A stretch of DNA of 64,000 bases, from the NCBI GenBank assembly GCA_034120015.1, contig JAXEIF010000029.1, positions 118,963 through 182,962 of the forward strand, in the 5' to 3' direction. A model generated the notes under the pieces. It worked only from the letters and a program-made list of their open reading frames with translations, ran no database searches and was not told where the DNA came from. A program made the translations under genes and the position numbers. Source of the stretch: Spirochaetia bacterium. GTDB lineage: Bacteria > Spirochaetota > Spirochaetia > JAFGXN01. Below are positions 11,339 to 47,588 of the stretch, piece by piece. The stretch's first letter is position 1, and every line of letters begins with the position of its first letter.

Positions 11339-12970
11339 ATGGAAGAAAACCGGTCCGAATCGGAACAGGGAAATTTGTTTTCGGAACAGGAGTCTCAACC
11401 CGAAGTCAAAAAGAAAGTCACAGTAAAAACGCGACCTGTTAAGGTCAAGACCGCGGAAACCGTTGCGGAAAGCCCGTCCGTAGCGTCGGCCGCCGCCGAA
11501 TCGGAAGTGCAGCCGGGTGAAGCAGCCGACAAGCCGCGACATTCGATTGCCGTTAAGAAAAAAAAGCCGGTCAAATTTACCGTTTCGACCGAAACCGCAC
11601 CTGTCAAAGAAAAACGGGAAATCAAAGAGCCGGTAGAAACAGCGGATTTGCGCGAACAGGAAGATGCCGAATTTTCACCCGAAGATATGGCCGATCGGCC
11701 TTCCATCATTATCAACGAGCTGACGACAAAAGATTATTCCGAATTGAGAGAGATGGCCGAGTCGATGGGGGTTTCCCGTGAATCGCTGGCAAATATGAAA
11801 ATTCAGGAAGTGATTTCCGAAATCCTGAAACAGCATACGCTGAAAGGCGGTGTCATTCACGGCTACGGTTCACTGGAAATTCTTCCCGATAATTTCGGAT
11901 TTTTGCGTCTGCCGCAAAACAGCTATCTGCCGGGGCCGGATGATATCTATGTTTCTCCCCATCAGATTCGTAAAATGAATCTGAGAACCGGGGATGTTGT
12001 CGGCGGTCTGGTCCGTTCACCGCGGCCGGGTGAAAAATATTTTGCTCTGCTTCAGGTAGAACATGTCAATTTCGGAAGTCCGGCGGCTGCCAAAACACGA
12101 ATTCCGTTCGATAATCTGGTTCCGCTTTATCCGAATGAACGGATTAATCTGGAGACGAAAAACGGCGATATATCGATGCGTGTTATTAATCTCTTTGCAC
12201 CGATCGGAAAGGGACAGCGCAGTCTGATTGTGGCCCCGCCGAGAACGGGAAAAACCGTTCTTCTTCAGAAGATTGCAAATGCGATTACGGAAAATCATCC
12301 GGAAATCGATCTGATTGTCCTGCTGATTGACGAGCGACCGGAAGAGGTAACCGATATGCGTCAGAATGTAAAGGGAGAAGTCATTGCTTCGACTTTTGAC
12401 GAACAGGCGACGCGTCATTGTCAGGTTGCCGAAATGGTCATTGAAAAAGCCAAACGGCTTGTCGAGAACAACCGTGATGTGGTGATTCTTCTCGATTCGA
12501 TTACGCGGTTGGCACGCGCCTATAACCAGACAGTGCCGGCTTCCGGTAAGATTCTTTCCGGCGGTGTCGATTCCAATGCGCTGCATAAACCGAAAAAGTT
12601 TTTCGGGGCGGCACGGAATGTTAAAAACGGCGGCAGTTTGACCATTATCGGGTCGGCTTTGATCGAAACGGGCAGCCGTATGGACGAAGTCATCTTTGAA
12701 GAGTTTAAAGGAACCGGTAATTCGGAAATCGTTCTCGACAGACGGATGAGTGAACGGCGGATTTTCCCGGCTATCAGTGTTAAAAAATCGGGAACCCGGA
12801 AAGAAGATTTGCTGCTGACGGAAGAAGAGATGGCCAAAATCTGGCTGCTGCGAAAAGTGCTCAATCCGATGGAAGATCTGGAAATCATGGAACTTCTGAT
12901 CGAAAAAATGTCGAAAACAAAAGATAATGAGGCATTTTTACGCTCGATGAACGATGCGGCAGTTGATTAA
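11339..12970 (+). CDS. rho: transcription termination factor Rho, with an N-terminal disordered extension of about 120 aa
   Basis: Walker A region [20 protein letters not shown]. Rho RNA-binding and ATPase regions are present. A 115-nt leader precedes the gene. Confidence 0.85.
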
Positions 12971-19498: not shown

Positions 19499-19580
19499 GA
19501 AACCCTCCTGTTCATTTATCGGAAATTTATACTTGAAAAAAAAGAAAAAATTTAGCAATATATTGGAAGAGAGGCGTTTT

Positions 19581-20627
19581 ATGTCATGGCAGCGATTTAA
19601 AGAGATGTTCGGTACAAAACGGGGGAAATTCAACCGTCCCGTTTTTCAGGATGAACAGTCCGGGGGTTTCCCGGGGCGGCGTTCTTCGGGTAAACCGACA
19701 GATGTGCAGAACGGTCATCCTGTCGATACATTTATGCAGGAAAACCGGTACGCCGAGCAGATTTTGCGTGACATGAAAAAGATTATACGCCGCATTTCTC
19801 AGCAGCCGTTCCAGTCCGACTGGAATCAGCTTTCTTATCTGGCAAAAGAACTGAAGGAAATCGAAATCCATTACCGGCGAATCGAGGAGGTCTTGTTTGC
19901 TTATCTTGAGCATTCCAAAATCAGCCGTCTGGATCAGGAATTTTCGGAGCGCTACAGAGATGTCAAGAGACTGTTGCGTAATTTTTCCCAGTCGGTAAAA
20001 AGCCGCAGTGAGGATGCCGTCTTTAAACTCTTTTATGAACTTTCCGATTCGATTCGGCAGATTATCACCGACGAAGACCAGATTCTGTTCCCGACGGCTT
20101 TGAATTATCTTTCAGCCGACGACTGGAAGACGGTACGTGCAAAAGGTGCCGCCATCGGTTATCCGTGGTCGGATAAAGGCGAACGACTCGAAGAAAAGCC
20201 GGTCGAAAACGGCGTGCCGTTTCTCGACGGATTTCATCTCGAAGGCGGTTTTCTGACATTGGAAATGATAGATGCCCTTTTGAACGTCACATTGGCGGAA
20301 ATCACGGTTTTCAATAAAGAGGGGGTTGCGGTTTATTTTAATTACGGTGAAAGGCGGCTGTATCCTCGTAAATCCGATTTAATCGGAAAACCGCTGAAAG
20401 AAGCATTCTCCGGAAAAAATTATACCAATATAAAAAAGATTCTTTCTTCCCTAAAATCACGTAAAGTTCCTTTTGTCGAGTTTTGGTTCCCCGAAAACGG
20501 CAGGCAGATTTATACCCGCTATGTTCCTTTATTCGGGCGAAACGGCGATTATAACGGTGCGGTCGAATTGATCATCGATGTATCGAATCTGCAAAGAATG
20601 ACGGGAACTTATTCCAGTTTAAGCTGA
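19581..20627 (+). CDS. hypothetical protein. Possible hemerythrin-like/DUF438-type N-region plus a PAS-like C-region (weak).
   Basis: Putative promoter TTGAAA-17-CAATAT, then GGAAGAGAGG, then ATG 19581 (MSWQRFKEMF...). The track start 19497 is probably not used. Confidence 0.35.
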   Translation: MSWQRFKEMFGTKRGKFNRPVFQDEQSGGFPGRRSSGKPTDVQNGHPVDTFMQENRYAEQILRDMKKIIRRISQQPFQSDWNQLSYLAKELKEIEIHYRRIEEVLFAYLEHSKISRLDQEFSERYRDVKRLLRNFSQSVKSRSEDAVFKLFYELSDSIRQIITDEDQILFPTALNYLSADDWKTVRAKGAAIGYPWSDKGERLEEKPVENGVPFLDGFHLEGGFLTLEMIDALLNVTLAEITVFNKEGVAVYFNYGERRLYPRKSDLIGKPLKEAFSGKNYTNIKKILSSLKSRKVPFVEFWFPENGRQIYTRYVPLFGRNGDYNGAVELIIDVSNLQRMTGTYSSLS

Positions 20628-26839: not shown

Positions 26840-29068
26840 GTGATTTATCGTTTTTACATGACCTGTCCTGCTTACTGTGAAGAATTGCTGAGAAAAGAAA
26901 TCGAGAATGCGGGAGGAGTCGATATTAAGACCCGTATCCGATCCGTTACTTTCGGAGGGACACGGGAAGTCGGGTATCGTTTGTGCCTGTATTCGGCTTA
27001 CGGAAATGCCCTGTATCGAATTCTGACGGAAGGACATGCCGGGCGAAAAGAGGAGATTGTCCGTCTGGCGACCGAAGTGGAGTGGGAAAATATTTTTTCG
27101 GAAGATGCATCATTTTCGGTGACCTGCAAACTGGCATCCAATAACAGTACGGCAATTACCGATTCGCGTTACGGGGCTCTGCTCTTAAAAGATTGTGTTT
27201 GTGACCGCTTTCGCGATGTGTACGGGCGTCGTCCTTCAGTTAATACCGACAATCCCGATGTGAAGCTTCATTTGCAGATTGTTCATGCCCACGCTCTGAT
27301 TTGCGTCAACTGGTCCGGAGAAACGCTCAACCGCCGGGGATACCGTCCGATGGGCGTCGAAGCTCCTTTAAAAGAGAATACGGCCGCGGCTGTGATTGCC
27401 CGCTGCCGCAAACCGCTGTCGGCCGCCGAATTTGTCGTCGATCCGATGTGCGGCAGCGGGACGCTGTTAATCGAGGCGGCAATGGCCGAATCCGGTATTC
27501 CGGCCGGGCTGTTGCGAAGCCGCCGTTCCCGCGGTTTCGGTTTTCAAACGCTGAAAGATTTCGATCGCAGTTTGTGGGATCGTTTGCGCGCCGAAGCCGA
27601 AAAGGCGGTTTCCAAAGGAAACGGCGCCGCCGGACGTTCCCGGGTTCGTTATTTCGGATTTGACATCGACCGGCGGGCGGCGGAGGCGGCGCGGCAAAAC
27701 GCAGCGGCTGCCGGATTGGCCGACCGCATTGTGATTCGGCAGGCCGATTTTCATACGCTGACCGCCGATGCCTTTCCCGATGACTGGAGCCCCGAAAAGA
27801 CCTGTCTTGTGGTCAATCCGCCGTACGGAGAACGGCTGGGGGACAAAGCAACCGTACCGGATTTGTATCGCGATTTCGGTAACTGTCTGCGTGAGGTATT
27901 TCCCGGATCGGTTGCCTGCATTTTGTGCGGTGATGCATCGCTGGCGGCGGCTGTCGGGTTGAAGGCAGCAAAGACGGCGCCGTTTCGTAACGGAGCACTG
28001 GAAACCGTTTTGGCTGTCTATCCGATTTTTTCGGAATCTCAACGGAACGCTTCCCGTTTGGCGGTCGAATCGAAACTGTCGGCCGTTCATTCGGGGGAGG
28101 CGCTGTCTGACGGAAGCCTGATGTTTGTCAACCGTTTGAAGAAAAACAGCAAAGAGTGGAAAAAAACGGCCGTCTCTCGGACAACTTCCGTTTACCGTCT
28201 TTACGATGCCGATATGCCCGAATATAACGCCTCTGTCGATATTTACACTCCGGTTGAAGGCGATGACTGTTCGCCCCGCATTTATGTGAGCGAATACACC
28301 CCGCCTTCGTCGGTTTCCGAAGAATCGCGGCAAAAGCGGTTGAACGAAATGATCGACGGGCTTCTCTTCTTTTTCAAAACTGATCGCCGGCACCTTTATC
28401 TGCGAACCCGTTTCCGACAGAAAAACGGAGCGGTGTATGAAAAGCTGAGCGACGAGTCGGCGCTGTTTGTGATTGCCGAAGAAGGCCTGCGTTTTGAAGT
28501 CAATTTATCGGATTATCTCGATACCGGTATTTACCCGGATCACCGGCCGTTGCGCCGGATTCTGCGCAAAGAAGCATCGGGGAAACGATTTTTGAATCTG
28601 TTTTCATATACGGCGACCGCCAGCGTTTGCGTCGCTGCCGGCGGTGCCGTTCGGGTGGTTTCGGTCGACGCTTCTGCCCGTTATTTGGAAACGGGAAAGC
28701 GCAATTTTGAGTTAAACGGTCTTTCACCCGAAAATGCCGTTTGGATCAGGAGTGATGTCATGAAATTTCTGAGAGAAGACACTGCCGTCTTCGATCTTAT
28801 CTATCTCGATCCGCCTACTTTTTCCAATTCAAAAAGTGCCCGTGATGACTTTGATTTGCAGACGGCGCAATGCGAGCTGATTGATCTCTGCATGAAGCGG
28901 CTTGTAAAAGGAGGTGTTCTCTATTTTTCCAATCATTTTCGGAAATTTGTTCCCGATGAACGGATGACGGAAAAATGGATGCCGGAAGAAATAACCGAAG
29001 CGACTTTCGATCCGGATTTTCGGCGGAATCGAAAAATTCACAGATGCTGGAGGTTTGATAAAAAATGA
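26840..29068 (+). CDS. rlmL: bifunctional 23S rRNA methyltransferase RlmKL (m2G2445 / m7G2069)
   Basis: THUMP-like N-terminus, VVNPPYGERLG motif, and a second C-terminal SAM methyltransferase domain. 742 aa. Confidence 0.7.
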   Translation: MIYRFYMTCPAYCEELLRKEIENAGGVDIKTRIRSVTFGGTREVGYRLCLYSAYGNALYRILTEGHAGRKEEIVRLATEVEWENIFSEDASFSVTCKLASNNSTAITDSRYGALLLKDCVCDRFRDVYGRRPSVNTDNPDVKLHLQIVHAHALICVNWSGETLNRRGYRPMGVEAPLKENTAAAVIARCRKPLSAAEFVVDPMCGSGTLLIEAAMAESGIPAGLLRSRRSRGFGFQTLKDFDRSLWDRLRAEAEKAVSKGNGAAGRSRVRYFGFDIDRRAAEAARQNAAAAGLADRIVIRQADFHTLTADAFPDDWSPEKTCLVVNPPYGERLGDKATVPDLYRDFGNCLREVFPGSVACILCGDASLAAAVGLKAAKTAPFRNGALETVLAVYPIFSESQRNASRLAVESKLSAVHSGEALSDGSLMFVNRLKKNSKEWKKTAVSRTTSVYRLYDADMPEYNASVDIYTPVEGDDCSPRIYVSEYTPPSSVSEESRQKRLNEMIDGLLFFFKTDRRHLYLRTRFRQKNGAVYEKLSDESALFVIAEEGLRFEVNLSDYLDTGIYPDHRPLRRILRKEASGKRFLNLFSYTATASVCVAAGGAVRVVSVDASARYLETGKRNFELNGLSPENAVWIRSDVMKFLREDTAVFDLIYLDPPTFSNSKSARDDFDLQTAQCELIDLCMKRLVKGGVLYFSNHFRKFVPDERMTEKWMPEEITEATFDPDFRRNRKIHRCWRFDKK

Positions 29069-30759
29069 AACGGCTTCTTTTCTTTTTTCTTTATTTAACG
29101 GCGGTTATGCCGGGCTTTTCTCAAAATCCGGTTCCCGAATTGACGATAGAGCCGGGTGTGAATCAAATCAATATCATTATGACCATTCCCGAAGGATTTC
29201 AACAGGGGTGGCAGCCCCGGTTTTTCGGCGTCGATGTGGCCGGGGGAGACGGTTATACCGTGGCCGGTATCGATTTCCCCGACGGTTTTCGCGAAGGGGT
29301 TTATTTGACCGGAACTGTCACAATAACAGTGAGACTGACAGCCCTTGAATCGGGAGAGGCGGAAATCCCTTTCACGGTTCGTTATCAGTTGTGTGATCTT
29401 TCCGGAGTCTGTTTTATGCCGTCCCGGGCGGAACTGACGGCTTCCGTGCCCCTTTTGCCTTCGTCCGTAAACAGCTCAACGGTTGCGGTCGGAACCGGCA
29501 CTGTTGAGGAAGCATCGCCGGTGCAGACCGGTGCCTCTTCCGAAGCCGGGGCGCTTTCACCTGTTTTAATCCTGCTGTTTGCTTTTCTCGGCGGACTTTT
29601 GCTGAATATCATGCCGTGTGTGCTGCCGGTTCTTTCCCTGAAAGCATTCAGCCTGTTGCAGCAGGCCGGCTCGCAACGCAAGCAGATGTTTGTCAATGCC
29701 ATGCTTTACAGTGGCGGTATTATCGTATCGTTACTGCTGCTTGCGGCGGTCACGGTTGCAGTGCGGGCGGGAGGAAAAAGCGTCGGCTGGGGTTTCCAGT
29801 TCCAGAGTTTGGGATATCTGATTTTTCTGATCGTACTGCTGGTTTCGGTTTCTTTTGCCATGTTTGATGTGTTCGTGATTTCGTTGCCGGGGGGAGTTCG
29901 GGTCCGATCTCATAAAAATATGTATGCCGAAAGTTTTTTTACGGGTATTCTGGCTGTTCTTCTGGCGACGCCTTGTACGGCACCTCTGTTGGGGGCTGCC
30001 GTCGGATTCGCTCTGACAAAGTCGGCGGTGCTGATCTTTGCTGTTTTTTTTCTCATCGGGCTGGGGTTGGCCTTTCCGTTTCTGCTGATCGGAATTTTCC
30101 CCGGTGCCGTACGTTTTCTGCCGAAACCGGGGCAATGGATGAATACGGTCAAAGAAGTGACCGGTTTTATTTTGTGCGGTGTTGCTGTCTGGCTGCTTTC
30201 CGTTTTGGGCAGACAGGTCGGAACGACGGCCATATGCGGATTTTTGGGGTGGCTGCTTTTACTGGTGTTTTCGTTTCGGATTTGGAACGGGTATGTCGTT
30301 TTGGGCAAGAAACGGACGGTGCGCATAATCGCCCTCTCTGTCATTGTTCTGTTGCTGGTTCCGACCGCTTTTGCGTTGTTTCCGACTCAGCGTATTGAAA
30401 AAGAGGCGGCCGGGTCGGTTTTTTCCGGTTATGAAATTTTTTCCGAAGCAGCTGTCCGTGAGGCGGTTGAAAACGGGGACTCTGTTTTTGTCGTGTTTTC
30501 CGCAGACTGGTGTCTTACCTGTCAAACCAACGAAAAAACCGTTCTTTCCGATGACGGTATTCGTCGGCTGTTTCGGGAACGGGGCGTCCGTCTGTTTTAC
30601 GGGGATTTCACCGCAGGAGACGAAAACATCGGATCCTGGTTGCGCCGTTACGGCCGTGCCGGCGTTCCGTTCGCCCTGTTTATCGATCAGGACGGGAATG
30701 AGACCGTATTGCCGGAGCTCTTGACGAAAAATCAAATAAAAGGTTTACTGGAAAAATAA
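29065..30759 (+). CDS. dsbD: thiol:disulfide interchange protein DsbD (alpha, beta and gamma domains)
   Basis: The periplasmic alpha domain has the motif QLCDLSGVC. The transmembrane core has the motifs NIMPCVLPVL and ATPCTAPLLG. The C-terminal thioredoxin domain has the motif WCLTCQ. ATGA overlap with rlmL. Confidence 0.7.
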   Translation: MKRLLFFFLYLTAVMPGFSQNPVPELTIEPGVNQINIIMTIPEGFQQGWQPRFFGVDVAGGDGYTVAGIDFPDGFREGVYLTGTVTITVRLTALESGEAEIPFTVRYQLCDLSGVCFMPSRAELTASVPLLPSSVNSSTVAVGTGTVEEASPVQTGASSEAGALSPVLILLFAFLGGLLLNIMPCVLPVLSLKAFSLLQQAGSQRKQMFVNAMLYSGGIIVSLLLLAAVTVAVRAGGKSVGWGFQFQSLGYLIFLIVLLVSVSFAMFDVFVISLPGGVRVRSHKNMYAESFFTGILAVLLATPCTAPLLGAAVGFALTKSAVLIFAVFFLIGLGLAFPFLLIGIFPGAVRFLPKPGQWMNTVKEVTGFILCGVAVWLLSVLGRQVGTTAICGFLGWLLLLVFSFRIWNGYVVLGKKRTVRIIALSVIVLLLVPTAFALFPTQRIEKEAAGSVFSGYEIFSEAAVREAVENGDSVFVVFSADWCLTCQTNEKTVLSDDGIRRLFRERGVRLFYGDFTAGDENIGSWLRRYGRAGVPFALFIDQDGNETVLPELLTKNQIKGLLEK

Positions 30760-35737: not shown

Positions 35738-36079
35738 TTATCTGGCCACGATTTCTTTTATAATAAATTCTCCCCCCTCAATGACTTTACAGTTCTGTGA
35801 TTGACAGTGCGGACATCGGTCTTCGTTTCCTTTTATGGCAAAAGTTTTACCGCAGTTCCAGCAAAGAGCTTTTCCCGGAATAATATTGATTTTTAATTCC
35901 GTTTTTTCCAGTAATGTTCCCTCAATAACGGCAGGATAGCATTCTTCAACATATTCGGGAACCACTCCCGAATATTCGCCGATATTCAATACCAGTGTAC
36001 CGATTTCCGTTACGTTGTTTTCTTTTGCAACCGCTTCTATCTTATCGACGATTTCAGCCATCAATCCCAATTCGTGCAT
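35738..36079 (-). CDS. hypA: hydrogenase/urease nickel-insertion metallochaperone HypA
   Basis: MHELGLMAEIV... N-terminus. C-terminal zinc site CWNCG...CPHCQ. 113 aa. Confidence 0.75.
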   Translation of the reverse strand: MHELGLMAEIVDKIEAVAKENNVTEIGTLVLNIGEYSGVVPEYVEECYPAVIEGTLLEKTELKINIIPGKALCWNCGKTFAIKGNEDRCPHCQSQNCKVIEGGEFIIKEIVAR

Positions 36080-36126
36080 ATCGGTTCTCCTGAGAAAGCG
36101 CCCGTGCAAACGGGCGCTGTGCGGAA

Positions 36127-38823
36127 TTATTTTTTAACGAAAGCATCTTTGATGCTTTTTGCCGTAATTTTACCGGCCCGTTTTACAGCGTATCCCGCAA
36201 CGCGCATCGGTAAATCTTCCAACTTGCCGCCGAAAGCCGGATTCTGTTTTTTTACCAGCTTAATCGCATCGAACTTACATTTGGTAACACAGAGACCGCA
36301 GCCGAGGCATTTGTATGTATCGACAACCGTGGCTCCGCAACCGAGACACCGTTCCGTTTCTTTTTTTACCTGTTCTTCGGTAAAGGCCAGACGGGCGTCG
36401 CGGAAAGTCTTGTCTTTCGACTTGTCGTGTCCGGCGACCTGTCTCGGGGTATTGTCGAATCCGGCTATATCAATATTTTCTTTGTCAAGAGCATGATAGC
36501 GGCGACGGTCACGGCCGAGAATAAGGCTTTGCCCCGGCTGGACAAAGCGGTGCAGGGAAATGGCTGCCTGTTTTCCGGCGGCAATGGCGTCGATAGCAAA
36601 TTTAGGACCCGTAAAGGCATCTCCTCCGACAAAGATATCGGATTCGGCGGTCTGATAAGTGAATCCGTCGGCTTCTGCTGTCATATTCGGGTTCAGTCTG
36701 ACTTTGCTTCCCTTCAGTAAGTCTCCCCAGAGAACAGTCTGTCCGACCGTCAGAAGAATGTAATCCGCGGAAACGGTGATGACTTCAGACTCGTCGAATT
36801 TCGGAGCAAACTTCCGGTTTTCGTCGAAAACGGAAATACATTTTTTGAACTCGATACCGGTCACTTTTCCGTTTTCCGTCAGAATTCGTTTCGGCCCCCA
36901 GCCATGGTCGACCGTAACACCCTCTTCGAGAGCTTCCTCGACTTCGTCGGCGCTGGCCGGCATTTCTTTTTCGCTTTCCAGACAGAACATTCTGACCGAA
37001 TCCGTTTTTTCGCGAATGGCAGTTCTGGCTACATCGACGGCGACATTGCCGCCGCCGATAACAACGATGCGGCCTCTGATGCCGGAGTTCTTACCTGCAT
37101 TCACTGTTTTCAGGAAATCGATGCCCGAAATAACACCTTCCGCTTCTTCCCCTTCAACGCCGATCTTTCGCCCTCCCTGGGCTCCGATTGCCAGGTAAAA
37201 GCCTTTGTAACCCTGTTTGCGCAGTTCGTCGAGCGTGACATCTTTCCCGACATCGATACCGGTTTTGAATTCGACACCGAGTTCGCGCAGAACATCGATT
37301 TCCGCATTCAAAACATCTTTTTCCAAACGGAACGACGGAATTCCGAGAGCAAGCATTCCGCCCGGTTTTTCTTCTTTTTCGAAAACGGTGACCGAATAGT
37401 TGTCGATAGCCAGGTAGTATGCGCACGCCAGACCGGCCGGTCCCGAACCGATAACGGCAATTTTCTTATCGGAATAGTCATGCATTTTTTTCGGAATAAA
37501 GCGGGTTTCTTTTTTCAATTCCCGTTCCGCCAAAAAGCGCTTGATTTCGTCGATAGCAATCGGCTGGTCGATTTCACCGCGCGTACATTCGTCCTCGCAG
37601 GCGTGATTACAGATCCGTCCGCAAACCGCCGGCAGAGGGTTTTCCTTTTTAATCAGTTCGAGAGCCTCGTCGTATTTGCCCTGAGCCGCCAGTTTGATAT
37701 ATCCCTGAACCGCAATATGGGCGGGGCATTTGGTTTTACACGGAGCTGTTCCCGTGTCGACGACGTCTTCGGAATTGGTACGGTAGTCGACGTTCCATTT
37801 CTTTTGCGTCCAGACGGTGTCGGTAATTTTGTCATATTCTTTTTCCGGCTTAATCGGTGTGATTGTACAGAGCTTTTGTCCGAGTTTCAGTGCGTTCGAC
37901 GGACAGGATTCGACACATTGACCGCAGGCGACGCAGTTTTCGGGATTGATTTCCGAGTAGTAGTTACTGCCGACCGCGCTGTAAGCGCCGAAGAGGGTTG
38001 CCACGCGTAATCCGAAGCAGGAACAGCTGCAGCAGTTACAGATAGCAGCCGAACTGCCGGTTCCGTCGATGTTGGGCAGCTGATGCATCAGCCCGTTTTC
38101 TTCTGCCCGTTTCAGAATTTCATAAACCTCTTCCCGCGTAATTTGACGTGCACGGCCGGTTCGGATAAAATATTCGGCCCCTTTCCCCATCTGCAGGCAA
38201 ATGTCGTGTTCCAGGTGTCCGCATCCTTCTCCCATAATTCGTCGGGTTCTCCGGCAGGAGCACGGCGCAACGGAAAAAACATCGTATTTATTAATATAGT
38301 AGCTTAAACGTTCGGCATCGACAGTTTGGGGATTGCCGTCGATAGCCTGTTCGATGGGAATGACGCGCATCAGTCCTGTACCGTTCGGGAGGAGAGAGGC
38401 CATAGAGGCCATTCTTTCCCGTGTGTACTGTTCAAAGGCGCGGGCTATTTGCGGATACTTTTCGACGAGTTCTTTATTTCCGACCATCATCTCCAAAATT
38501 CCCGGAGCGAATGTTTGGACAAAAAAGCAATCTTCGCCCTCTTTTGTTTTATTGACTCGCAAAACACCCTTATCTGCCAGAGACAACAGAAGCTGATGCG
38601 TTTTTTCGGGACTTAAGCCCAGTTTTGTCTGTGCTTTTTTCTGAATTTCGGAAATCGGAGTTTCCGTTCTCCATTTCAGGAGCAGCGCCGCGTCGGCCTC
38701 TTCATCGGAGACACAGCATTCCAGTGAGTAATACTCGGGTGATTCGGCGGTTATCCGGTTCAGCATACCGGGTGTTCCGCCGACCAGTTTTGCCAGTTTG
38801 ACAATCTTCTTTCTTAAAGCCAT
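36127..38823 (-). CDS. multi-domain Fe-S flavoprotein (YgfK/AegA-like). N-terminal Cys-rich region, 2x[4Fe-4S], a GltD-like FAD/NAD(P)H pyridine-nucleotide-disulfide oxidoreductase domain, and a C-terminal 2x[4Fe-4S] ferredoxin.
   Basis: Dinucleotide-binding fold KKIAVIGSGPAGLACAYYL. GltD-type cluster region CPAHIAVQGY...AVCGRICNHACEDEC. C-terminal CLGCGATVVDTYKCLGCGLCVTKC. N-terminal APCSCRR...CNCCSCSCFG...CVACGQCVESCP. Confidence 0.55.
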   Translation of the reverse strand: MALRKKIVKLAKLVGGTPGMLNRITAESPEYYSLECCVSDEEADAALLLKWRTETPISEIQKKAQTKLGLSPEKTHQLLLSLADKGVLRVNKTKEGEDCFFVQTFAPGILEMMVGNKELVEKYPQIARAFEQYTRERMASMASLLPNGTGLMRVIPIEQAIDGNPQTVDAERLSYYINKYDVFSVAPCSCRRTRRIMGEGCGHLEHDICLQMGKGAEYFIRTGRARQITREEVYEILKRAEENGLMHQLPNIDGTGSSAAICNCCSCSCFGLRVATLFGAYSAVGSNYYSEINPENCVACGQCVESCPSNALKLGQKLCTITPIKPEKEYDKITDTVWTQKKWNVDYRTNSEDVVDTGTAPCKTKCPAHIAVQGYIKLAAQGKYDEALELIKKENPLPAVCGRICNHACEDECTRGEIDQPIAIDEIKRFLAERELKKETRFIPKKMHDYSDKKIAVIGSGPAGLACAYYLAIDNYSVTVFEKEEKPGGMLALGIPSFRLEKDVLNAEIDVLRELGVEFKTGIDVGKDVTLDELRKQGYKGFYLAIGAQGGRKIGVEGEEAEGVISGIDFLKTVNAGKNSGIRGRIVVIGGGNVAVDVARTAIREKTDSVRMFCLESEKEMPASADEVEEALEEGVTVDHGWGPKRILTENGKVTGIEFKKCISVFDENRKFAPKFDESEVITVSADYILLTVGQTVLWGDLLKGSKVRLNPNMTAEADGFTYQTAESDIFVGGDAFTGPKFAIDAIAAGKQAAISLHRFVQPGQSLILGRDRRRYHALDKENIDIAGFDNTPRQVAGHDKSKDKTFRDARLAFTEEQVKKETERCLGCGATVVDTYKCLGCGLCVTKCKFDAIKLVKKQNPAFGGKLEDLPMRVAGYAVKRAGKITAKSIKDAFVKK

Positions 38824-38841
38824 TTCATCCTCCGTATAAAA

Positions 38842-39552
38842 TTAATGACGGTTTTTCATTAACGCATTGGGTTGTATTATTTCGGAACTTTTCCATTCGG
38901 CGACTGCATCTTTCAGCCATTGAATCCAGGAAAGGATGCCTTCGCCCGTTTTCCCCGAAATCGTAAAAATCCGAATATTCGGATTGAGTTTTCGTACCCG
39001 TTCGATGCACAAGTCGATATTGAAATCGAAATAGGGCAGGACGTCGATTTTGTTAATCAGCAGAACATCGCAAACGGCAAACATATTCGGATATTTAAGA
39101 GGTTTGTCGTCTCCTTCTGGTACGCTGAGAATCATCGCGTTGGCTGCCGCTCCCGTATCGAATTCGGCGGGACAGATCAGATTGCCGATATTTTCAATAA
39201 CGGCCAAATCGATATTTTCGAGCCCGATGCCGTCGGTTCCCTGTCGGGTCATTCCTGCCGTCAGGTGGCACATACCTCCGGTATGAAGCTGAACAGCTTT
39301 GGCTCCGGCTTCGGCCACTGCGCGGGCATCGACATCGGAATCGATATCGGCTTCCAAAACGGCAATTTTCAAATCATTTTTCAGTTCACCGATTGTTTTT
39401 TCCAGAAAAGTAGTTTTCCCCGAACCGGGAGAGGACATCAGATTGAGAAGAAACGTTTTTCCTTTTTTCAGTTCGGCACGCAGACGGTCAGCTTCCGCAT
39501 TGTTGTCGGCATAAACACTTTGCTTAATTTCAATAACACGAAATGCATCCAT
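38842..39552 (-). CDS. hypB: hydrogenase nickel-incorporation GTPase HypB
   Basis: P-loop LMSSPGSGKTT. Metal-site residues GGMCHL and NLICPAEFD. 236 aa. Confidence 0.8.
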   Translation of the reverse strand: MDAFRVIEIKQSVYADNNAEADRLRAELKKGKTFLLNLMSSPGSGKTTFLEKTIGELKNDLKIAVLEADIDSDVDARAVAEAGAKAVQLHTGGMCHLTAGMTRQGTDGIGLENIDLAVIENIGNLICPAEFDTGAAANAMILSVPEGDDKPLKYPNMFAVCDVLLINKIDVLPYFDFNIDLCIERVRKLNPNIRIFTISGKTGEGILSWIQWLKDAVAEWKSSEIIQPNALMKNRH

Positions 39553-39573
39553 AAATTCAGTTACCTCAACAAT

Positions 39574-39602
39574 ATTATATGTTGAGAAATGCCGTTTTTC
39601 AA
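39574..39602 (-). promoter_or_regulatory. sigma70-like promoter for hypB (TTGAAA-17-TATAAT). The inverted repeat CTCAAC-N10-GTTGAG spans the -10 box.
   Basis: The reverse complement of 39560-39603 reads cTTGAAAaacggcatttctcaacaTATAATattgttGAGGTaactgaatttATG. Palindrome arms at 39565-39570 and 39581-39586. Confidence 0.55.
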
Positions 39603-39603
39603 G

Positions 39604-39630
39604 AAAAAAAACCGGAGGATTCCTCCGGTT
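39604..39630 (-). terminator. rho-independent terminator (minus strand): AACCGGAGGA/TCCTCCGGTT perfect palindrome, then T8
   Basis: Read directly. Follows the stop (39650) of the small upstream minus-strand ORF. Confidence 0.7.
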
Positions 39631-39649
39631 GACAGTCTGAAATGTTAAA

Positions 39650-39822
39650 TTATCGGAAGTTGAAATCGATACGGCCGGTCCCGCCTTCGATCGGTAAAGA
39701 TTCGGTTATCACGGAATCAATTACTGTTTCGCCGGTCTCGGGTGTCGGTTTCGGGTTTTTGAAATTATGCAGAGAAATATTCTAAAAGTAAAAAGCAAAA
39801 TCAATAATACAATTTTTTTCAT
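39650..39822 (-). pseudogene. small putative lipoprotein gene split by a frameshift at an A5 run
   Basis: AGGAG-N8-ATG(39822) gives MKKIVLLILLFTFRIFLCIISK.... This frame stops at 39721. The +1 frame continues ...NFKNPKPTPETGETVIDSVITESLPIEGGTGRIDFNFR to a stop at 39650. One extra A in the A5 run (plus-strand T5 at 39756-39760) joins the two frames. Confidence 0.3.
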
Positions 39823-39933
39823 AAACATAACTCCTAAAAAATTTTCTCTCTTTAACATATATATTGCATTTAGTCAACAAAGGAAAATCAATTTTTATTT
39901 GGATTGAATAAAAAAATATATTTATAAAAATCG

Positions 39934-39962
39934 TTGACAATTTTTTTTTTTCGCGTTATAAT
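39934..39962 (+). promoter_or_regulatory. consensus sigma70 promoter TTGACA-17-TATAAT driving rubredoxin
   Basis: TTGACA at 39934-39939, a 17-nt T-rich spacer, TATAAT at 39957-39962. The ribosome-binding site AAAGGAGA follows about 15 nt downstream. Confidence 0.7.
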
Positions 39963-39992
39963 CAGTCATCTGAATTGAAAAAGGAGAAAAAA

Positions 39993-40151
39993 ATGCAGAA
40001 ATATGTTTGTGATTTGTGCGGATATGTTTACGATCCTGCCGTAGGCGATCCCGACAGCGGTATTGCTCCGGGAACACCGTTTGAGGCAATTCCCGAAGAC
40101 TGGGTTTGTCCGGTTTGCGGAGCTGCCAAAAGCATGTTTTCCGCCCAGTAA
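39993..40151 (+). CDS. rub: rubredoxin (52 aa). Absent from the ORF track, which omits ORFs under 60 aa.
   Basis: Translation: [52 protein letters not shown]. Canonical CxxCG...CPxCG rubredoxin. Followed by terminator GAGAAAGGGG-ATGT-CCCCTTTCT + T5 at 40156-40183. Confidence 0.85.
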
Positions 40152-40234
40152 GCGGGAGAAAGGGGATGTCCCCTTTCTTTTTTAATCTTTTGTTTATACC
40201 TTTTATAAAAAAATATTTTATATAGGAGAAAAAA

Positions 40235-40972
40235 ATGAAGAAAATTTTTACTGTTATGTTTATTCTGTTTGCGTTGGGTGCGTTTGCACAGGAATCGAGT
40301 CGAATGCCGCTGATCGGCGATCCGGCTCCGGCGTTTACAGCCGTGACGACACAGGGAACCATTGATTTTCCGAAAGATTTTAAAGGAAAATGGGTGATTC
40401 TGTTCAGCCATCCCGCCGATTTTACGCCCGTCTGTACCACAGAATTTATGACGTTTGCTTCCATGATCGATGAATTTGCGGCTTTGAATACCCAGCTGGT
40501 CGGTCTTTCGATTGATTCGCTGTATGCTCACATCGCCTGGCTGCGAAAAATTCAGGAACTCAAGTGGAAAGATCTCGAAAACATCGAAGTCACTTTCCCT
40601 CTGATTGAAGACATCAAAATGGAAGTTGCCAAAAAATACGGAATGCTTCAGCCGAATGCCTCTTCGACACAGGCTGTCCGTGCCGTCTTTATTATTGATC
40701 CGAAAGGAATTATCCGCACGATTCTGTACTATCCGCTTTCGACCGGACGTAACTTCGACGAAATTAAACGGTTGGTTCAGGCACTGCAGAAAGCCGACGA
40801 AGGTGTGGCGACCCCTGCCGACTGGAGACCGGGAGATGATGTGATTGTGCCGACAGCAGGCTCCTGCGGAACCGCAAAAGAAAGAATGGAAAATCAGACA
40901 GCGGATCAGTACTGCCTTGACTGGTTTATGTGCTTCAGAAAAGATAATGCGGGTAAAAAGGGCAGAAAGTAA
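40235..40972 (+). CDS. 1-Cys peroxiredoxin (Prx6/AhpC-TSA family) with an N-terminal signal peptide
   Basis: FSHPADFTPVCTTE peroxidatic-Cys motif. MKKIFTVMFILFALGAFAQE signal-peptide-like leader. 245 aa. Confidence 0.7.
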   Translation: MKKIFTVMFILFALGAFAQESSRMPLIGDPAPAFTAVTTQGTIDFPKDFKGKWVILFSHPADFTPVCTTEFMTFASMIDEFAALNTQLVGLSIDSLYAHIAWLRKIQELKWKDLENIEVTFPLIEDIKMEVAKKYGMLQPNASSTQAVRAVFIIDPKGIIRTILYYPLSTGRNFDEIKRLVQALQKADEGVATPADWRPGDDVIVPTAGSCGTAKERMENQTADQYCLDWFMCFRKDNAGKKGRK

Positions 40973-41067
40973 ACCTTTTCCGCAACCAGATGAAAGCTGC
41001 CGGTTCTCCGGCAGCTTTTTTGTTAAAAACAGACCGGCGGGAGTCCCCGTCTGTCTGTTCGCCTGAC

Positions 41068-43602
41068 TTACTTTTCGATGATGTCCGTTACCGTATAGCC
41101 TGCGCCGGTGACGGCCTTTTTCAAAACGTCGACCGCGGTATTGTTTTCGATGCGGCAGGTGGCCTTGGCTGTTTGCAGGTCGACGGTTGCGGAAACGCCT
41201 TCCACGGCGTTCAGAGCCGATTCGACATGGGTACGGCAGTGGTTGCACATCATACCTTCGATTTTCAGTTCGACCGTTTTCATGGGAAAACCTCCTTGAT
41301 TTTTGTTTTTACCGATTATCGCATCCCGTGAAAAGCGGGATCGGAAGCGTTTTAACCGCAGTGCGTTGCCGACAACGCAAATCGAGCTGAGGCTCATGGC
41401 CGCAGCGGCAAACTCCGGTCGCAGCGGAATACCGAAAAGCGCTTCGAGCAGTCCCGACGCGGCCGGAATCCCGAGACAGTTATAAAACAGTGCCCAAAAC
41501 AAATTTTCTTTAATATTGTGCATAACTTTTCGGCTGAGTCGCAACGCCGTCACAGCATCGGAAAGACGGTTGTTCATCAGAACAATTTCGGCTGTTTCAA
41601 TCGCAATGTCGGACCCGCCGGCGGGGGCGATACCGATATCGGCGCGGGCAAGTGCCGGCGAGTCGTTGATGCCGTCTCCGGTCATACCGACGCTGTGACC
41701 TTCGTTTTGAAGGCGGCGGATTTCTGCCTCTTTGTCCTGCGGTAAAAGACCTGCCCGGACTGTTTCGATTCCAACCAGGGCGCCGACGGCCGCTGCCGTT
41801 TCCGCGCGGTCTCCCGTCAGCATGACGGGAGTGATGCCCATTTCTTTTAAACCGGCAACGGCCTCTGCCGAATCGGGTTTCGGGCGGTCGATGACGGACA
41901 GTGTGCCGAGAAAACGTCCGTTTTCGGCAAAAAAGAGCGGCGTTTCGCCGCCTGAGACGGCGTCGCCCGCCCCGGCGGGCACGGTAATGCCGTTTTCCGT
42001 CAGAAAAGAGGCATTGCCGGCGTAAACGGTGTTGCCCGAAACGGTGCCGCAGATGCCTCTGCCGGGAACTGTCTGCAGATTGTCGGCCGGCGGGTAATTT
42101 ATATTGAGAGCGGCTGCATAGGCGGTGACGGCATCCGCCAGCGGGTGAGAGGAACCCGCTTCGAGGGCGGCTGCGGTCTTTATAAGTTCGTCTTTTGTTA
42201 CTCCGGGTGACGGTCGCACCGCTGTGACGGACGGTCTGCCTTCGGTCAAAGTTCCTGTTTTATCCAGTAACAAAAAGTCGATGCGGCCGGCTTTTTCCAG
42301 CGCTTCGCCGTTTCGGATCAGAATTCCCAGTTCGGCGCCGCGTCCGATTCCGACTGTTACGGCTGTCGGTGTGGCCAGCCCCAAAGCGCACGGACAGGAA
42401 ATGACCAAAACCGCGATTGCCCGCCCGAGCGCCGTTTCGAAACCGAGTCCGAAAAATAAGGCGGCGGCAAACGTTACGAGAGCAATCGTCATCACAACGG
42501 GAACAAAAACGCGGCTGATGCGGTCGGCCAGACGCGCAATCGGGGCTTTGGAGGCGGATGCTTCTTCGACAAGAGAAATAATGCGGGCCAAAGTGTTTTC
42601 TTTACCGACACGGGTGGCCCGTACTTTGAGCAGTCCCCACCGGTTGACGGATCCGGCCAAAACAGAATCGTCCGGATTCTTTTCGACAGGGATGCTTTCG
42701 CCGGTCAACGCCGATTCATCCATTGCCGAACTGCCTTCGATCACCGTTCCGTCGGCCGCGGCTGTTTCTCCGGCTTTAATCAGGAAGATTTCATCTTTAA
42801 GCAGACTGTCGGCGGGAATTGTTTCCTCACGGCCGTTACGTATGACGGTTACCGATCGCGGCGATAAATCGATCAGTTTTTCGATGACCGAAGATGTTCT
42901 GCGTCGGGCACGGCTTTCCAGGTATTTCCCCAGAGAAACGAGCGTCAGAATCATGCCGGCCGATTCGAAATAGAGGTGAGTACCGTATTGTTTTACAAGA
43001 GTCTGATTACCTGTTTCCAGGCCGTATCCGAGCCGGTACAGGGCAAAAAGGCTGTATGCAACGGCTGCACCGGCACCGACGGCAATCAGCGAATCCATAA
43101 TCGGTTTCCCGCGAAACAGCGTTTTGAAACCGCCGGTAAAATAGGAGCGGTTTAAAAACAAAATCGGAATCAGCAGCAGAAATTGCGTTAAAGCGGAAAG
43201 AAGGGTGCCGTGAAATGCGGCAACGGTCGAGCCGGGAGCAAAGCGGTGCGCTGCCATCAACCCCATATCGAGCAGAAACAGCGGTACCAGAAAAACGGCC
43301 GAAAAAATCAGCCGCATACGCGTTTCCCGGTCGGCTGCCGCCGTTTTTCCGGTGGTCAACCCTGAATCCGAACCGCGATCGGCCGCTTCCGACGGCGTTA
43401 TGGGGCGGTAACCCGCCTTTTTGACGGCATCACAAAAATGGTGTTCGTTTGTGCGGGTTTCGTCATAAACGATTTGGGCTTTATTTGTCAGCAGGCTGAC
43501 CCGAACCGAGTCGACGCCTTCTATTTTTTTTACGGCATCTTCGACATGAACGGCGCAGGCCGAACATGTCATGCCCTCGATATTGATTTCACATTTTTTC
43601 AT
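41068..43602 (-). CDS. copA: heavy-metal (Cu+/Ag+-type) translocating P1B-type ATPase with HMA domains at both the N- and C-termini
   Basis: N-terminal GMTCSACAVHVE, CPCALGLATP, DKTGTLT, GDGINDSPAL, C-terminal GMMCNHCRTHVE. 844 aa. Confidence 0.8.
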   Translation of the reverse strand: MKKCEINIEGMTCSACAVHVEDAVKKIEGVDSVRVSLLTNKAQIVYDETRTNEHHFCDAVKKAGYRPITPSEAADRGSDSGLTTGKTAAADRETRMRLIFSAVFLVPLFLLDMGLMAAHRFAPGSTVAAFHGTLLSALTQFLLLIPILFLNRSYFTGGFKTLFRGKPIMDSLIAVGAGAAVAYSLFALYRLGYGLETGNQTLVKQYGTHLYFESAGMILTLVSLGKYLESRARRRTSSVIEKLIDLSPRSVTVIRNGREETIPADSLLKDEIFLIKAGETAAADGTVIEGSSAMDESALTGESIPVEKNPDDSVLAGSVNRWGLLKVRATRVGKENTLARIISLVEEASASKAPIARLADRISRVFVPVVMTIALVTFAAALFFGLGFETALGRAIAVLVISCPCALGLATPTAVTVGIGRGAELGILIRNGEALEKAGRIDFLLLDKTGTLTEGRPSVTAVRPSPGVTKDELIKTAAALEAGSSHPLADAVTAYAAALNINYPPADNLQTVPGRGICGTVSGNTVYAGNASFLTENGITVPAGAGDAVSGGETPLFFAENGRFLGTLSVIDRPKPDSAEAVAGLKEMGITPVMLTGDRAETAAAVGALVGIETVRAGLLPQDKEAEIRRLQNEGHSVGMTGDGINDSPALARADIGIAPAGGSDIAIETAEIVLMNNRLSDAVTALRLSRKVMHNIKENLFWALFYNCLGIPAASGLLEALFGIPLRPEFAAAAMSLSSICVVGNALRLKRFRSRFSRDAIIGKNKNQGGFPMKTVELKIEGMMCNHCRTHVESALNAVEGVSATVDLQTAKATCRIENNTAVDVLKKAVTGAGYTVTDIIEK

Positions 43603-45257: not shown

Positions 45258-45657
45258 AAATATATGCTCCCATATTTTGAGCCAAACGGCGGTACGACCA
45301 TTCTTTATCGGCAACCGGTATTGTTTTTGTCAGGTTTTCGGTTGAGGATTCCGACGAAACGTTCACGCTGTAGATATTGATTTCTTTAATCAGAGCAGAA
45401 GGCGTCGGACAGAGTTTTCGAAATGCTTCATCATCGAGCGAAGAGGAAACAGACTCTCCCCCCGCAATCGATTGGGAATAAATTGTGTAAGTACCCGAAG
45501 CCTGGGAAGCGACGGATTTTTTGCTCCCGTCGGTTAAGACCGCTTCAAATCGCTGCGGCGACGAAGAAGCGGTTTTAATCTGATATAACGATTCGTATGA
45601 AATCGAAAACGAACAGGAGCAAAAGATCGTCAAAAACAGGATCGCCGATTTTTTCAT
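45244..45657 (-). CDS. hypothetical lipoprotein (Ser-rich)
   Basis: MKKSAILFLTIFCSC lipobox. 137 aa. Confidence 0.45.
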   Translation of the reverse strand: MKKSAILFLTIFCSCSFSISYESLYQIKTASSSPQRFEAVLTDGSKKSVASQASGTYTIYSQSIAGGESVSSSLDDEAFRKLCPTPSALIKEINIYSVNVSSESSTENLTKTIPVADKEWSYRRLAQNMGAYIYELK

Positions 45658-47588
45658 TTGACCGAAATTTCGTTAATCGATACGGCCTGGTCTTCGTTCA
45701 GAAAATCGATTCGAACTTCGAGTATGGCGCCATTGACAGCGCAGTCGGCGATTCCCTTTTCAAATTCTCCGACTTTTACCGGTGTTGCGGATCCTTCATA
45801 CAGAACCGAAACCGGTGTTCCGTCTTCAATACGTCCGTTCGGAGTATCATGGATGAAAAAACCTCCCGAAATAATTTGTAACCGGTTGTCTTTTGCATTT
45901 TGCGGTTCATTCCAACGCACAGAGAAAAAATCGCCGTTTTTGGGTGCGGAAGCCGACACGAAAGCATCGGCATCGCGACCGTTTACCGCGTATTCGGGGT
46001 AGGTGCTGTTTTTGTGTTTCAGGGATGTTGTCACGGAGGCGTTTACGGAATTTTGCAGCCGTTCCCGTGACGGCGTTTGCGCCGGAGTAATCCCTGTTTT
46101 GAGGATGACCGGAGTCAGTGTCTGCAGCCGTTTTTCAAATCCGGAAAAGTTCTTTTTGTTTTTTGCTGTCCACATCTGTTCCGAGAAGGCAAAAAGCCGG
46201 GGAAAAAGCATTTCGTCGAGACTGCTTTCGTTTACTTCTTCCGTCCACAGAGTGCAGGCTCCGCCGACAAAAAGATTTTTATTGCGGTTGAGTGCCGAAG
46301 GACGGAAATTATAGTTGTAAACTTTTTTAAGCGACAGAACCGGCATCCAGGCCGATTTGCATGTTCCGGCGTATTGCGGATAATCGAAGTAAGCGTAGTC
46401 TCCGGCCGCGTTCAGGGTTCTGATACCCGCGTTGAGTGATTGTGTAAGATAGGATCGGCCGACATAAGCCCGCCAGACCTGGGCGATGGCATGGTCGCTG
46501 ATTTTCAGATTCGGATATTCACACCAGTAAATCGGGGTGATTCCTTTTTCTTCGAGATAGGAAGCGTACTGTTTCAGGAAAACAACCAGCAGTTCTTTTT
46601 CCGTCAGATCGTTTTTTTTCATTTTCTCCGAGCATAAAGGACATTTTGCCCAGATACCGAGAGGAACTTCATCCCCGCCCATGTGAAAATATTCGGGGTT
46701 GCGGAAGATTGTCAGAACTTCGTCTAAAATCTCCGCCAGAAACGGAAACAGGTTCGGGTTGGCAATGCAGAGAATTTCCGTCCAGTCGCGGTTGGAGATG
46801 CGTTCGGAAACGGAGACGCGATCCCGGTTGGTCGGACATAAAAATTCGGGGTATGCTTCGACAAATGCGGCGGCATGTCCCGGCATATCGATTTCCGGAT
46901 AAACCGTGATACCCAATTCGGCAGCGCGGTCCAAAACGCGGTGTATTTCCTCAACCGTGTAAAAACCGTTGCGTTCCGATTCCGGGTAGCGTCCGACGCG
47001 GGACGAAATTGTGTTCAGTTTCGGGAATTTCTTGCTTTCGATGCGCCAGCCGTCGTTGTCGGTCAGATGCCAGTGGAGACGGTTAATGCGGGCAAATGCC
47101 AGTTTGTCCAGCAGTGCCAGAATCGTATCGCTGCTTTGAAAGTGGCGGGCCGAATCAAGCATAAATCCGCGCCATTCGGTTTCCGGCCGGTCGTTAACGG
47201 TAAAAGCGTTCAGGTTTTCGGTCTGTCCCGCTGTCTGAATCAGAGTTGAAAAAGCGTAAACAAAACCGGCTGTTCCTCCGGCTGTGATTGCGATCTGTCC
47301 GTTTTCGACTGTCAGGGAAAAAGCTTCGGCTCCCAACGTCGTGTCGGCTTTCATTTGCAGAGAAGCCTGATTTCCCTGTCGGGCCGAAATCGGAATGTTT
47401 TTCCCCATTCTGTTAAAGAAAGCAACCGCACCCGCGGCTTCTTTCGGACATACGGTGTATGTTAAAACGGCCGGAACGGAAGCCGCGTCGTCGTTAACCG
47501 TCATTTCCGCCGGAACCGGAATCAGCGCAGGACCGGCCGACCATCCGTTGAGCGAACAAAAAATAAATGCCATTAATAATTTTTTCAT
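45654..47588 (-). CDS. beta-N-acetylhexosaminidase (GH20) with signal peptide
   Basis: RINRLHWHLTDNDGWR, YPEIDMPGHAAA and HMGGDEV are GH20 catalytic motifs. 644 aa. Confidence 0.75.
   Translation of the reverse strand: MKKLLMAFIFCSLNGWSAGPALIPVPAEMTVNDDAASVPAVLTYTVCPKEAAGAVAFFNRMGKNIPISARQGNQASLQMKADTTLGAEAFSLTVENGQIAITAGGTAGFVYAFSTLIQTAGQTENLNAFTVNDRPETEWRGFMLDSARHFQSSDTILALLDKLAFARINRLHWHLTDNDGWRIESKKFPKLNTISSRVGRYPESERNGFYTVEEIHRVLDRAAELGITVYPEIDMPGHAAAFVEAYPEFLCPTNRDRVSVSERISNRDWTEILCIANPNLFPFLAEILDEVLTIFRNPEYFHMGGDEVPLGIWAKCPLCSEKMKKNDLTEKELLVVFLKQYASYLEEKGITPIYWCEYPNLKISDHAIAQVWRAYVGRSYLTQSLNAGIRTLNAAGDYAYFDYPQYAGTCKSAWMPVLSLKKVYNYNFRPSALNRNKNLFVGGACTLWTEEVNESSLDEMLFPRLFAFSEQMWTAKNKKNFSGFEKRLQTLTPVILKTGITPAQTPSRERLQNSVNASVTTSLKHKNSTYPEYAVNGRDADAFVSASAPKNGDFFSVRWNEPQNAKDNRLQIISGGFFIHDTPNGRIEDGTPVSVLYEGSATPVKVGEFEKGIADCAVNGAILEVRIDFLNEDQAVSINEISVK

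Follow-up and report, generated by a model that had tools for sequence, protein, structure and literature searches.

Within a 64,000-nucleotide (nt) stretch of a Spirochaetia bacterium contig (the window), a small rubredoxin gene is followed on the same strand by a gene for a peroxiredoxin (Prx) that begins with a hydrophobic N-terminal leader. Thiol peroxidases are almost always cytoplasmic, and the locus raises the question of whether this one is exported and, if so, what keeps it reduced. A preliminary description had joined the two genes into one oxygen and peroxide detoxification module, with rubredoxin as electron donor. We conclude that they are two independent genes, not one electron-transfer module. 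The reading we favor, and consider fairly probable, is that a cytoplasmic rubredoxin lies beside a Sec-exported peroxiredoxin of the 2-Cys type that is recycled via the membrane reductase DsbD. The gene structure, the family membership, the rarity of the leader and the selection on it, and the complete DsbD are established here; what we infer is that the enzyme is exported, where its leader is cleaved, which cysteine resolves the reaction and what reduces it.

The peroxiredoxin coding sequence (40235..40972, + strand) specifies 245 residues, and the precursor N-terminus reads MKKIFTVMFILFALGAFA|QE. Residues 1-18 (40235..40288, +) form a predicted Sec signal peptide, MKK / IFTVMFILFAL / GAFA, with cleavage before Q19. 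This assignment is a rule-based reading of the n-region, the h-region, the -3 and -1 residues, the lipobox and the twin arginine. The leader conforms to the Sec and signal peptidase I rules, with K2 and K3 giving an n-region charge of +2, a core (I4-L14) with a Kyte-Doolittle hydropathy of 2.9 and an A16-F17-A18|Q19 end; the hydrophobic core spans about 11-14 residues, and a glycine stands at -4. Leaders of other exported proteins in the window also end in xxA/S|Q, as in VSA|Q at 16209 and GFS|Q of DsbD. Lipoprotein or twin-arginine (Tat) export was considered and rejected, as the leader contains neither a lipobox cysteine nor a twin arginine. In the proposed course of events, translation would begin at the ATG at 40235, the Sec pathway would export the protein, and signal peptidase I would then cut after Ala18 (AFA|QE) to leave a periplasmic enzyme of 227 residues with an N-terminus no longer than in its leaderless relatives. 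The predicted cut leaves QESS before the conserved RMPLIGD, roughly the length of a leaderless N-terminus (compare MEDTN-RMPLIGD).

We examined how the leader has evolved in alignments of six Spirochaetia lineages. The ATG of Met1 and its 6-nt spacing from an AGGAG ribosome-binding site (40224..40228, +) are invariant in all of them. Some lineages carry a 1-nt indel between the ribosome-binding site and the ATG, showing that the frame is not kept upstream, and the 54-nt leader itself contains zero indels. Met8 is missing from the P0002, P0003 and L007 orthologues, and because these three lineages lack it, Met1 is the conserved start. In comparisons with three related lineages, codons 4-14, which make up the hydrophobic core, have diverged to 45-61% DNA identity and 18-36% protein identity without acquiring a stop, against 77-83% and 87-92% for the mature protein in the same lineages. 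Despite this divergence, the mean Kyte-Doolittle hydropathy of the core stays at 2.55-2.95; random mutation at equal divergence preserved an open frame and that hydropathy in 0.2-1.5% of 20,000 trials. DNA identity over the GAFAQE cleavage region is 89-100%. Judged from sequence, a core that evolves fast and is constrained in hydrophobicity alone, followed by a fixed A-x-A site, is the mark of a functional Sec signal peptide, and we take the leader to be real, translated and under selection.

Two other accounts of the protein's location have to be set against these observations. The leader might go unused, with translation starting at Met24 or Met8 to give an ordinary cytoplasmic peroxiredoxin reduced by thioredoxin. 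Met24 sits at the position of the leaderless homologues' conserved RMPLIGD and has an AGGA 10 nt upstream, so internal initiation of a cytoplasmic form is possible, and the NCBI record for the identical protein (MDY3940214.1; P0276) starts at Met8, a residue missed by the preliminary description, which had recognized no internal methionine before position 24. Both points weigh against export. We nevertheless give this account little credence: an untranslated leader would not keep its hydrophobicity and its AFAQE site under such strong divergence, the strong AGGAG-6-ATG at Met1 is invariant while Met8 is dispensed with in three lineages, and the window protein does not have the MEE-type end with which leaderless homologues start, 5-9 residues before RM. 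The leader might instead be an uncleaved signal anchor that tethers the peroxiredoxin to the inner membrane, facing the periplasm. The same topology and selection arguments would apply, and a rule-based reading alone is no proof of cleavage. A core of this length is, however, short for a membrane span, and the near-ideal A-x-A|Q with its helix-breaking Gly at -4 is almost invariant, even in DNA, which argues for selection on the cleavage site; we find an anchor unlikely. Periplasmic peroxide removal, which the preliminary description had raised as a possibility, is probably the best reading of this conserved leader. Separately, the Met8 start in MDY3940214.1 (the leader's first codons being window 40235-40258) cuts off the Lys-Lys n-region, and automated localization screens working from that start call would probably miss the signal peptide.

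How unusual the leader is can be judged among the protein's relatives. Identical and near-identical contigs come from metagenome assemblies. The identical NCBI protein, MDY3940214.1, is entered as 'peroxiredoxin [Spirochaetia bacterium]', a fragment in its 90% cluster carries the label Sphaerochaetaceae, and the closest species-level genome is an uncultured Spirochaetes metagenome-assembled genome (MAG), L007, at 90% identity. The family is extremely conserved, and identity stays at 80-84% in Clostridia, Actinomycetota, Mollicutes-like groups and Spirochaetes. Of the 120 top-ranking protein clusters, just the four closest (87-96% identity) have a leader, and the rest (~116) are about 222-230 residues long. 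When the frame was read upstream of the conserved RMPLIGD at 80 species-representative loci, 79 proved leaderless, with a short acidic MEExxxRM-type start, and the sole leader was that of the Spirochaetes MAG L007, MKKALIFLFALTAAGAFAQE. The solved homologues likewise all start at or near the fold, with no leader. The preliminary description was thus right to call the leader unusual, and we read it as a rare, derived state, the gain of an export signal by a well-known enzyme.

We also looked for leaders farther afield. A search of JGI metagenomes for more members of the clade, using a back-translated AQE..RMPLIGD pattern, returned 0 matches. A wider search of 1.84 billion representatives gave 214 matches with the active-site motif, of which nine have a strongly hydrophobic N-terminus; four of the nine are this clade, and at least three are deeper, unnamed Prx6-like clusters at 40-49% identity. 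P0172 and P0152, signal-like by inspection although under the scan threshold, also belong to such deeper clusters (40-49% identity). Those with signal-peptide-like N-termini are P0172 (L095 5068-5826), P0152, P0179, P0196 and P0239. P0172 lies on a Bacteroidota-type contig, adjoining a Por_Secre_tail gene, and some of the deeper clusters do not have the C-terminal cysteine pair and may be true 1-Cys exported enzymes. Exported Prx6-like proteins seem to have arisen several times. The literature searched yielded no characterized example, and exported Prx6-type enzymes may be an overlooked recurrent theme.

The mature peroxiredoxin (40289..40972, +; 227 residues plus stop) carries, in precursor numbering, the peroxidatic Cys67 (PADFTPVC), Arg149, Cys211 and a Cys227-x5-Cys233 pair. 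It scores 329 bits against NCBIfam PRK13189 (cutoff 211) and contains the Pfam domains AhpC-TSA (PF00578, 4e-34) and 1-cysPrx_C (PF10417, 6e-8). The Prx6 subfamily assignment made in the preliminary description stands, with P60-ADF-T64-PV-C67, R149 and a C-terminal 1-cysPrx_C domain all in place. The best solved matches are Aquifex AhpC2 (5ovq, 1e-69), Pyrococcus/Thermococcus Prx (3w6g, 1e-52, and 6itz) and Aeropyrum ApTpx (2cv4, 7e-51, and 1x0r), with human PRDX6 weaker at 1e-41; because matches to solved structures reach 1e-69, the fold is fixed.

The accompanying 1-Cys label has to be given up. A true 1-Cys enzyme has no resolving cysteine, whereas C211, C227 and C233 are all present here, two of them in a conserved resolving motif: C227-LDWFM-C233 aligns column for column with the archaeal-type C-x5-C of 3w6g, 6itz and 5ovq (CLDWFMC aligned to CYDWWFC and CADWYIC). 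In ApTpx, this motif supplies the resolving Cys213; the enzyme requires Cys50, Cys207 and Cys213, and thioredoxin reduces the disulfide between Cys50 and Cys213 (PMC7465337). The window enzyme is most likely a member of the Prx6 subfamily by sequence and a 2-Cys peroxiredoxin in mechanism, '1-Cys' here being the name of a Pfam domain and no demonstrated mechanism. As in ApTpx, PhPrx and Aquifex AhpC2, Cys67 would attack H2O2 or an organic hydroperoxide, and the resulting sulfenic acid would be resolved by the C-terminal Cys227/Cys233 pair of the partner subunit.

An exported enzyme of this kind would need a source of electrons in the periplasm. The window encodes a three-domain DsbD-type membrane thiol:disulfide reductase of 564 residues (29065..30759, +), with a signal peptide (GFS|Q), 9.5 kb upstream of the peroxiredoxin. 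It matches Pfam DsbD_TM (5e-23) and Thioredoxin_7 (2e-15), and all six canonical cysteines are present: Cys110 and Cys116 in the alpha domain (YQLC110DLSGVC116), Cys185 and Cys304 in the membrane domain, and Cys483 and Cys486 in the gamma domain (C483-LT-C486), which aligns to E. coli DsbD structures as ADWCLTC against ADWCVAC. Together with Lnt and many lipobox leaders in the window, the complete DsbD indicates a periplasm with a reducing pathway. There is a precedent for such an arrangement. In Caulobacter crescentus, the DsbD-family protein ScsB acts via TlpA to keep the exported peroxiredoxin PprX reduced, and the gamma domain of E. coli DsbD can reduce PprX directly (PMC3322552). Candidate counterparts of a PprX-type system, a signal-bearing peroxiredoxin and a complete DsbD, lie within the same 64 kb here, although the peroxiredoxin subfamily differs from that of PprX. 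By analogy, DsbD is a plausible periplasmic electron source for the exported peroxiredoxin: electrons would pass from cytoplasmic thioredoxin to the DsbD membrane domain, on to the gamma and/or alpha domain, and from there to the peroxiredoxin disulfide, and a periplasmic thioredoxin-like protein may act as intermediate between DsbD and the peroxiredoxin.

Several observations count against this proposal. The window DsbD appears from its sequence to be a divergent homologue, scoring 171 bits against NCBIfam PRK00293 (profile positions 98-551), where the cutoff is 330. What would tie it to the peroxiredoxin is that it is present and that PprX offers an analogy; its position 9.5 kb away reflects synteny common to close relatives and is no evidence of coupling. 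The window yielded no thioredoxin-like partner for the periplasm, and the reduction of an ApTpx-type intersubunit disulfide by DsbD is a proposed step. Finally, H2O2 crosses membranes, so it is not evident what a periplasmic enzyme would gain (PMC9144841). The exported enzyme might instead be reduced by small reductants of the gut lumen or periplasm (sulfide, cysteine, glutathione or ascorbate), or act mainly as a sensor, a chaperone or a sacrificial scavenger. The lack of a dedicated periplasmic partner in the window would fit this, as would the use of reductants other than thioredoxin by some Prx6-type enzymes. The archaeal relatives, too, double as chaperones in high-order oligomers (PMC7465337). 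Against it stand the complete DsbD encoded in the genome and the reliance of the only characterized exported bacterial peroxiredoxin on a DsbD-family transporter (PMC3322552), and we consider it doubtful.

The adjacent rubredoxin was the electron donor proposed in the preliminary description, and we asked what ties it to the peroxiredoxin. Its 52-residue coding sequence (39993..40151, +) contains Cys6, Cys9, Cys39 and Cys42 (CDLCG...CPVCG) and no signal peptide. It is preceded by a sigma-70 consensus promoter, TTGACA-17-TATAAT (39934..39962, +; -35 at 39934-39939 and -10 at 39957-39962), that matches at 12 of 12 positions, and by an AGGAG ribosome-binding site (39982..39986, +) that we read in the sequence 6 nt 5' of the ATG at 39993. 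It is followed by an intrinsic terminator (40154..40187, +) found by terminator scan, with a hairpin at 40154-40181 and then a T run; the hairpin has a folding energy of -18.7 kcal/mol (z = -3.0). All of these elements had been correctly placed by the preliminary description. Its statement that the gene was unannotated holds for the open reading frame track, where the protein falls below the 60-residue threshold, but not for the public gene calls on identical contigs, where it is listed. The protein scores 5e-26 (90.8 bits, cutoff 23) against Pfam PF00301 and 103.4 bits (cutoff 90) against NCBIfam NF045768 RubredRD. At about 50 residues, above a curated cutoff and with both iron-binding knuckles (C6-x2-C9-G and C39-P-x-C42-G), it is an ordinary small cytoplasmic iron-sulfur electron carrier.

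Conservation picks out the same elements. Across four lineages the -35 hexamer is unchanged, and the -10 varies as TATAAT, TATGGT or TATGAT; the GGAG of the ribosome-binding site is invariant in the lineage alignment; and the terminator stem, GAAAGGGG/CCCCTTTC, and T run are invariant in six lineages, with a variable loop. Counting both strands, the window contains two perfect TTGACA-17-TATAAT sites, whereas shuffled sequence would give 0.01; the second (11220-11248, +) lies ~90 nt 5' of rho (11339..12970). The rubredoxin would be expressed as a single-gene transcript from a strong consensus promoter, ending at its own terminator. Farther upstream, the AT-rich spacer 5' of rubredoxin is separated from the hypB promoter region by a GC-rich hairpin (39610-39630; AACCGGAGGATTCCTCCGGTT) that follows an A run, which reads as a T run on the minus strand; no minus-strand gene upstream would need a terminator there.

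The two genes lie 83 nt apart, close to the roughly 80 nt first reported, and this interval contains more than the rubredoxin terminator. In five related lineages (L094, L087, L007 and L090 among those compared) the peroxiredoxin has an intact promoter of its own, TTGATT-17-TATAAT, with which a degenerate remnant in the window, TTGTTT-18-TATTTT (40190..40219, +), aligns; the remnant scores under the promoter-scan threshold. The decayed promoter stands in the window lineage alongside the perfect rubredoxin -10, TATAAT, and the two may reflect a shift to read-through expression in that lineage. A 7-3-7 palindrome (TTTGTATTTTATACAAA) over the promoter spacer in L007, L087 and L090 was considered as an operator and dropped, as it is missing from the P0278 lineage and the window and is not improbable in AT-rich DNA. 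An Rfam scan of 39400-41200 for known RNA elements gave nothing near any gathering score. Downstream of the peroxiredoxin, before the convergent copA, lies a terminator hairpin (40992..41019, +; -21.9 kcal/mol, z = -4.7) followed by UUUGUU.

Could the two genes still form one detoxification unit, with rubredoxin passing electrons to the peroxiredoxin? They are adjacent and on the same strand, the order of rubredoxin, peroxiredoxin and convergent copA is kept in every leader-bearing lineage, and, given the weak peroxiredoxin promoter in the window, read-through from the strong rubredoxin promoter could add to peroxiredoxin expression. The conserved order, however, is plain synteny of close relatives, because many unrelated flanking genes are shared as well. 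The conserved gene pairing that had been supposed is absent elsewhere: a rubredoxin within 4 kb of the peroxiredoxin is seen at 0 of the 79 leaderless loci, searching every flank with phmmer for rubredoxin, DsbD and CopA gave matches in the leader-bearing clade only, and the flanks of four leaderless spirochaete loci, scanned with Pfam, hold wholly different, unrelated neighbors (a CoA-disulfide-reductase-like gene in Breznakiella, Crp-family regulators and purine genes). Co-transcription as a module also fails to account for the conserved terminator between the genes and the separate peroxiredoxin promoter of the relatives. As an electron donor, rubredoxin has no export signal and so cannot feed a periplasmic peroxiredoxin from a different compartment. 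Peroxiredoxin turnover is thiol-based chemistry, and we know of no rubredoxin-driven peroxiredoxin. A shared unit is therefore highly improbable.

Nor does the window hold the rest of such a module. The ~45 window proteins scanned against Pfam include no rubrerythrin, flavodiiron protein (rubredoxin:oxygen oxidoreductase, ROO), superoxide reductase or PerR/Fur, and hence neither a rubredoxin-accepting enzyme nor PerR encoded alongside. Partners of the rubredoxin (rubrerythrin, flavodiiron protein or superoxide reductase) are likely to be encoded elsewhere in the genome. Just one further oxygen-related gene was noticed in the window (19497-20627, +); it encodes a 376-residue protein with hemerythrin HHE and PAS_10 domains that may be an O2 or redox sensor. 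On the minus strand at 35738-39552, hypA and hypB (nickel insertion) flank an 898-residue Fe-S/flavin GltD-like oxidoreductase. This three-gene block is missing in L007 and L090, where an SSF transporter abuts rubredoxin, and because of this absence it is an insertion or deletion between close relatives. We rejected the block as a rubredoxin reductase partner, since L007 and L090 keep the rubredoxin-peroxiredoxin pair without it, leaving no conserved link. In Breznakiella homolactica (L013 2173-3897), the gene directly before the leaderless peroxiredoxin encodes a CoA-disulfide-reductase-like flavoprotein that carries a rhodanese domain, a candidate dedicated reductant of the cytoplasmic form there.

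Other genes of the window bear on the kind of organism that carries this locus. A neutral/alkaline ceramidase homologue of 898 residues (20700-23396, +; Pfam 1e-96) has a lipoprotein-like leader, and the window also encodes a GH20 protein (45654-47588), a fucosidase (60043-62913) and a BspA-type repeat (BspA-LRR) protein. This combination suggests host lipid and glycan foraging by a diderm, host-associated organism, a habitat we infer from these genes. One may go further and suppose that a clade of anaerobic gut spirochaetes, probably without a cytochrome c that needs maturing, relocated its main ApTpx-type peroxiredoxin to the periplasm. There, as a principal DsbD client at the end of a thioredoxin, DsbD, Prx chain, it would remove host-derived H2O2 before this reaches the cytoplasm; or else the exported enzyme would support a PRDX4-like, peroxide-driven formation of disulfides in envelope proteins. 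A cytoplasmic isoform started at Met24 would add dual targeting. We offer this as speculation that is rather unlikely to be right as a whole.

If the favored reading of an exported, DsbD-recycled peroxiredoxin is true, envelope peroxide defense reaches a second peroxiredoxin subfamily and another phylum, probably as an oligomeric Prx6/ApTpx-type enzyme in a mucosa-associated anaerobe, and the DsbD of a fermentative spirochaete gains a concrete client. According to a 2022 review, PprX was the first peroxidase identified in the periplasm, and few are known (PMC9144841); in the literature searched the PrxQ-type PprX is the only characterized bacterial cell-envelope peroxiredoxin (PMC3322552). The window protein would be a rare exported variant of a known enzyme with a functional precedent in another peroxiredoxin subfamily.

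Comparison with known systems places each component. The rubredoxin has the 52-54-residue length and the two CxxCG knuckles of the classical RubredRD type of Clostridium and Desulfovibrio, exceeds the curated equivalog cutoff and differs in nothing notable; just its promoter strength and single-gene layout stand out. The peroxiredoxin shares with Aeropyrum pernix ApTpx (2cv4/1x0r), Pyrococcus horikoshii PhPrx (3w6g) and Aquifex aeolicus AhpC2 (5ovq) full-length homology (1e-69 to 7e-51), the HPADFTPVCTTE active site, the conserved Arg, the 1-cysPrx_C domain and the C-x5-C motif; those enzymes are leaderless, cytoplasmic and reduced by thioredoxin systems, whereas the window protein also has an export signal of 18 residues and one further cysteine, Cys211. 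Human PRDX6 and the true 1-Cys Prx6 enzymes (1prx, 5b6m) belong to the same subfamily by sequence (1e-41) and have the 1-cysPrx_C domain, but PRDX6 is without a resolving cysteine and the window enzyme retains a C-terminal cysteine pair. Mammalian PRDX4, resident in the endoplasmic reticulum or secreted, offers a parallel in its cytoplasmic-type fold directed by an added signal peptide to an oxidizing compartment, and PRDX4 chains with N-terminal extensions are among the PDB matches; it is eukaryotic, of the Prx1 subfamily, recycled by the PDI family and a contributor to disulfide formation, and its leader was gained independently. In the PprX/TlpA/ScsB system (PMC3322552), as here, the peroxiredoxin carries a signal (~20 residues in PprX) and the host is diderm; PprX is recycled with electrons from a DsbD-family membrane protein, and the window genome has such a DsbD. 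PprX itself is a BCP/PrxQ enzyme, monomeric or atypical 2-Cys, of Proteobacteria and cyanobacteria; the window protein is of the Prx6/ApTpx type, probably decameric or dodecameric, and comes from an anaerobic gut spirochaete with no TlpA-like partner identified in the window.

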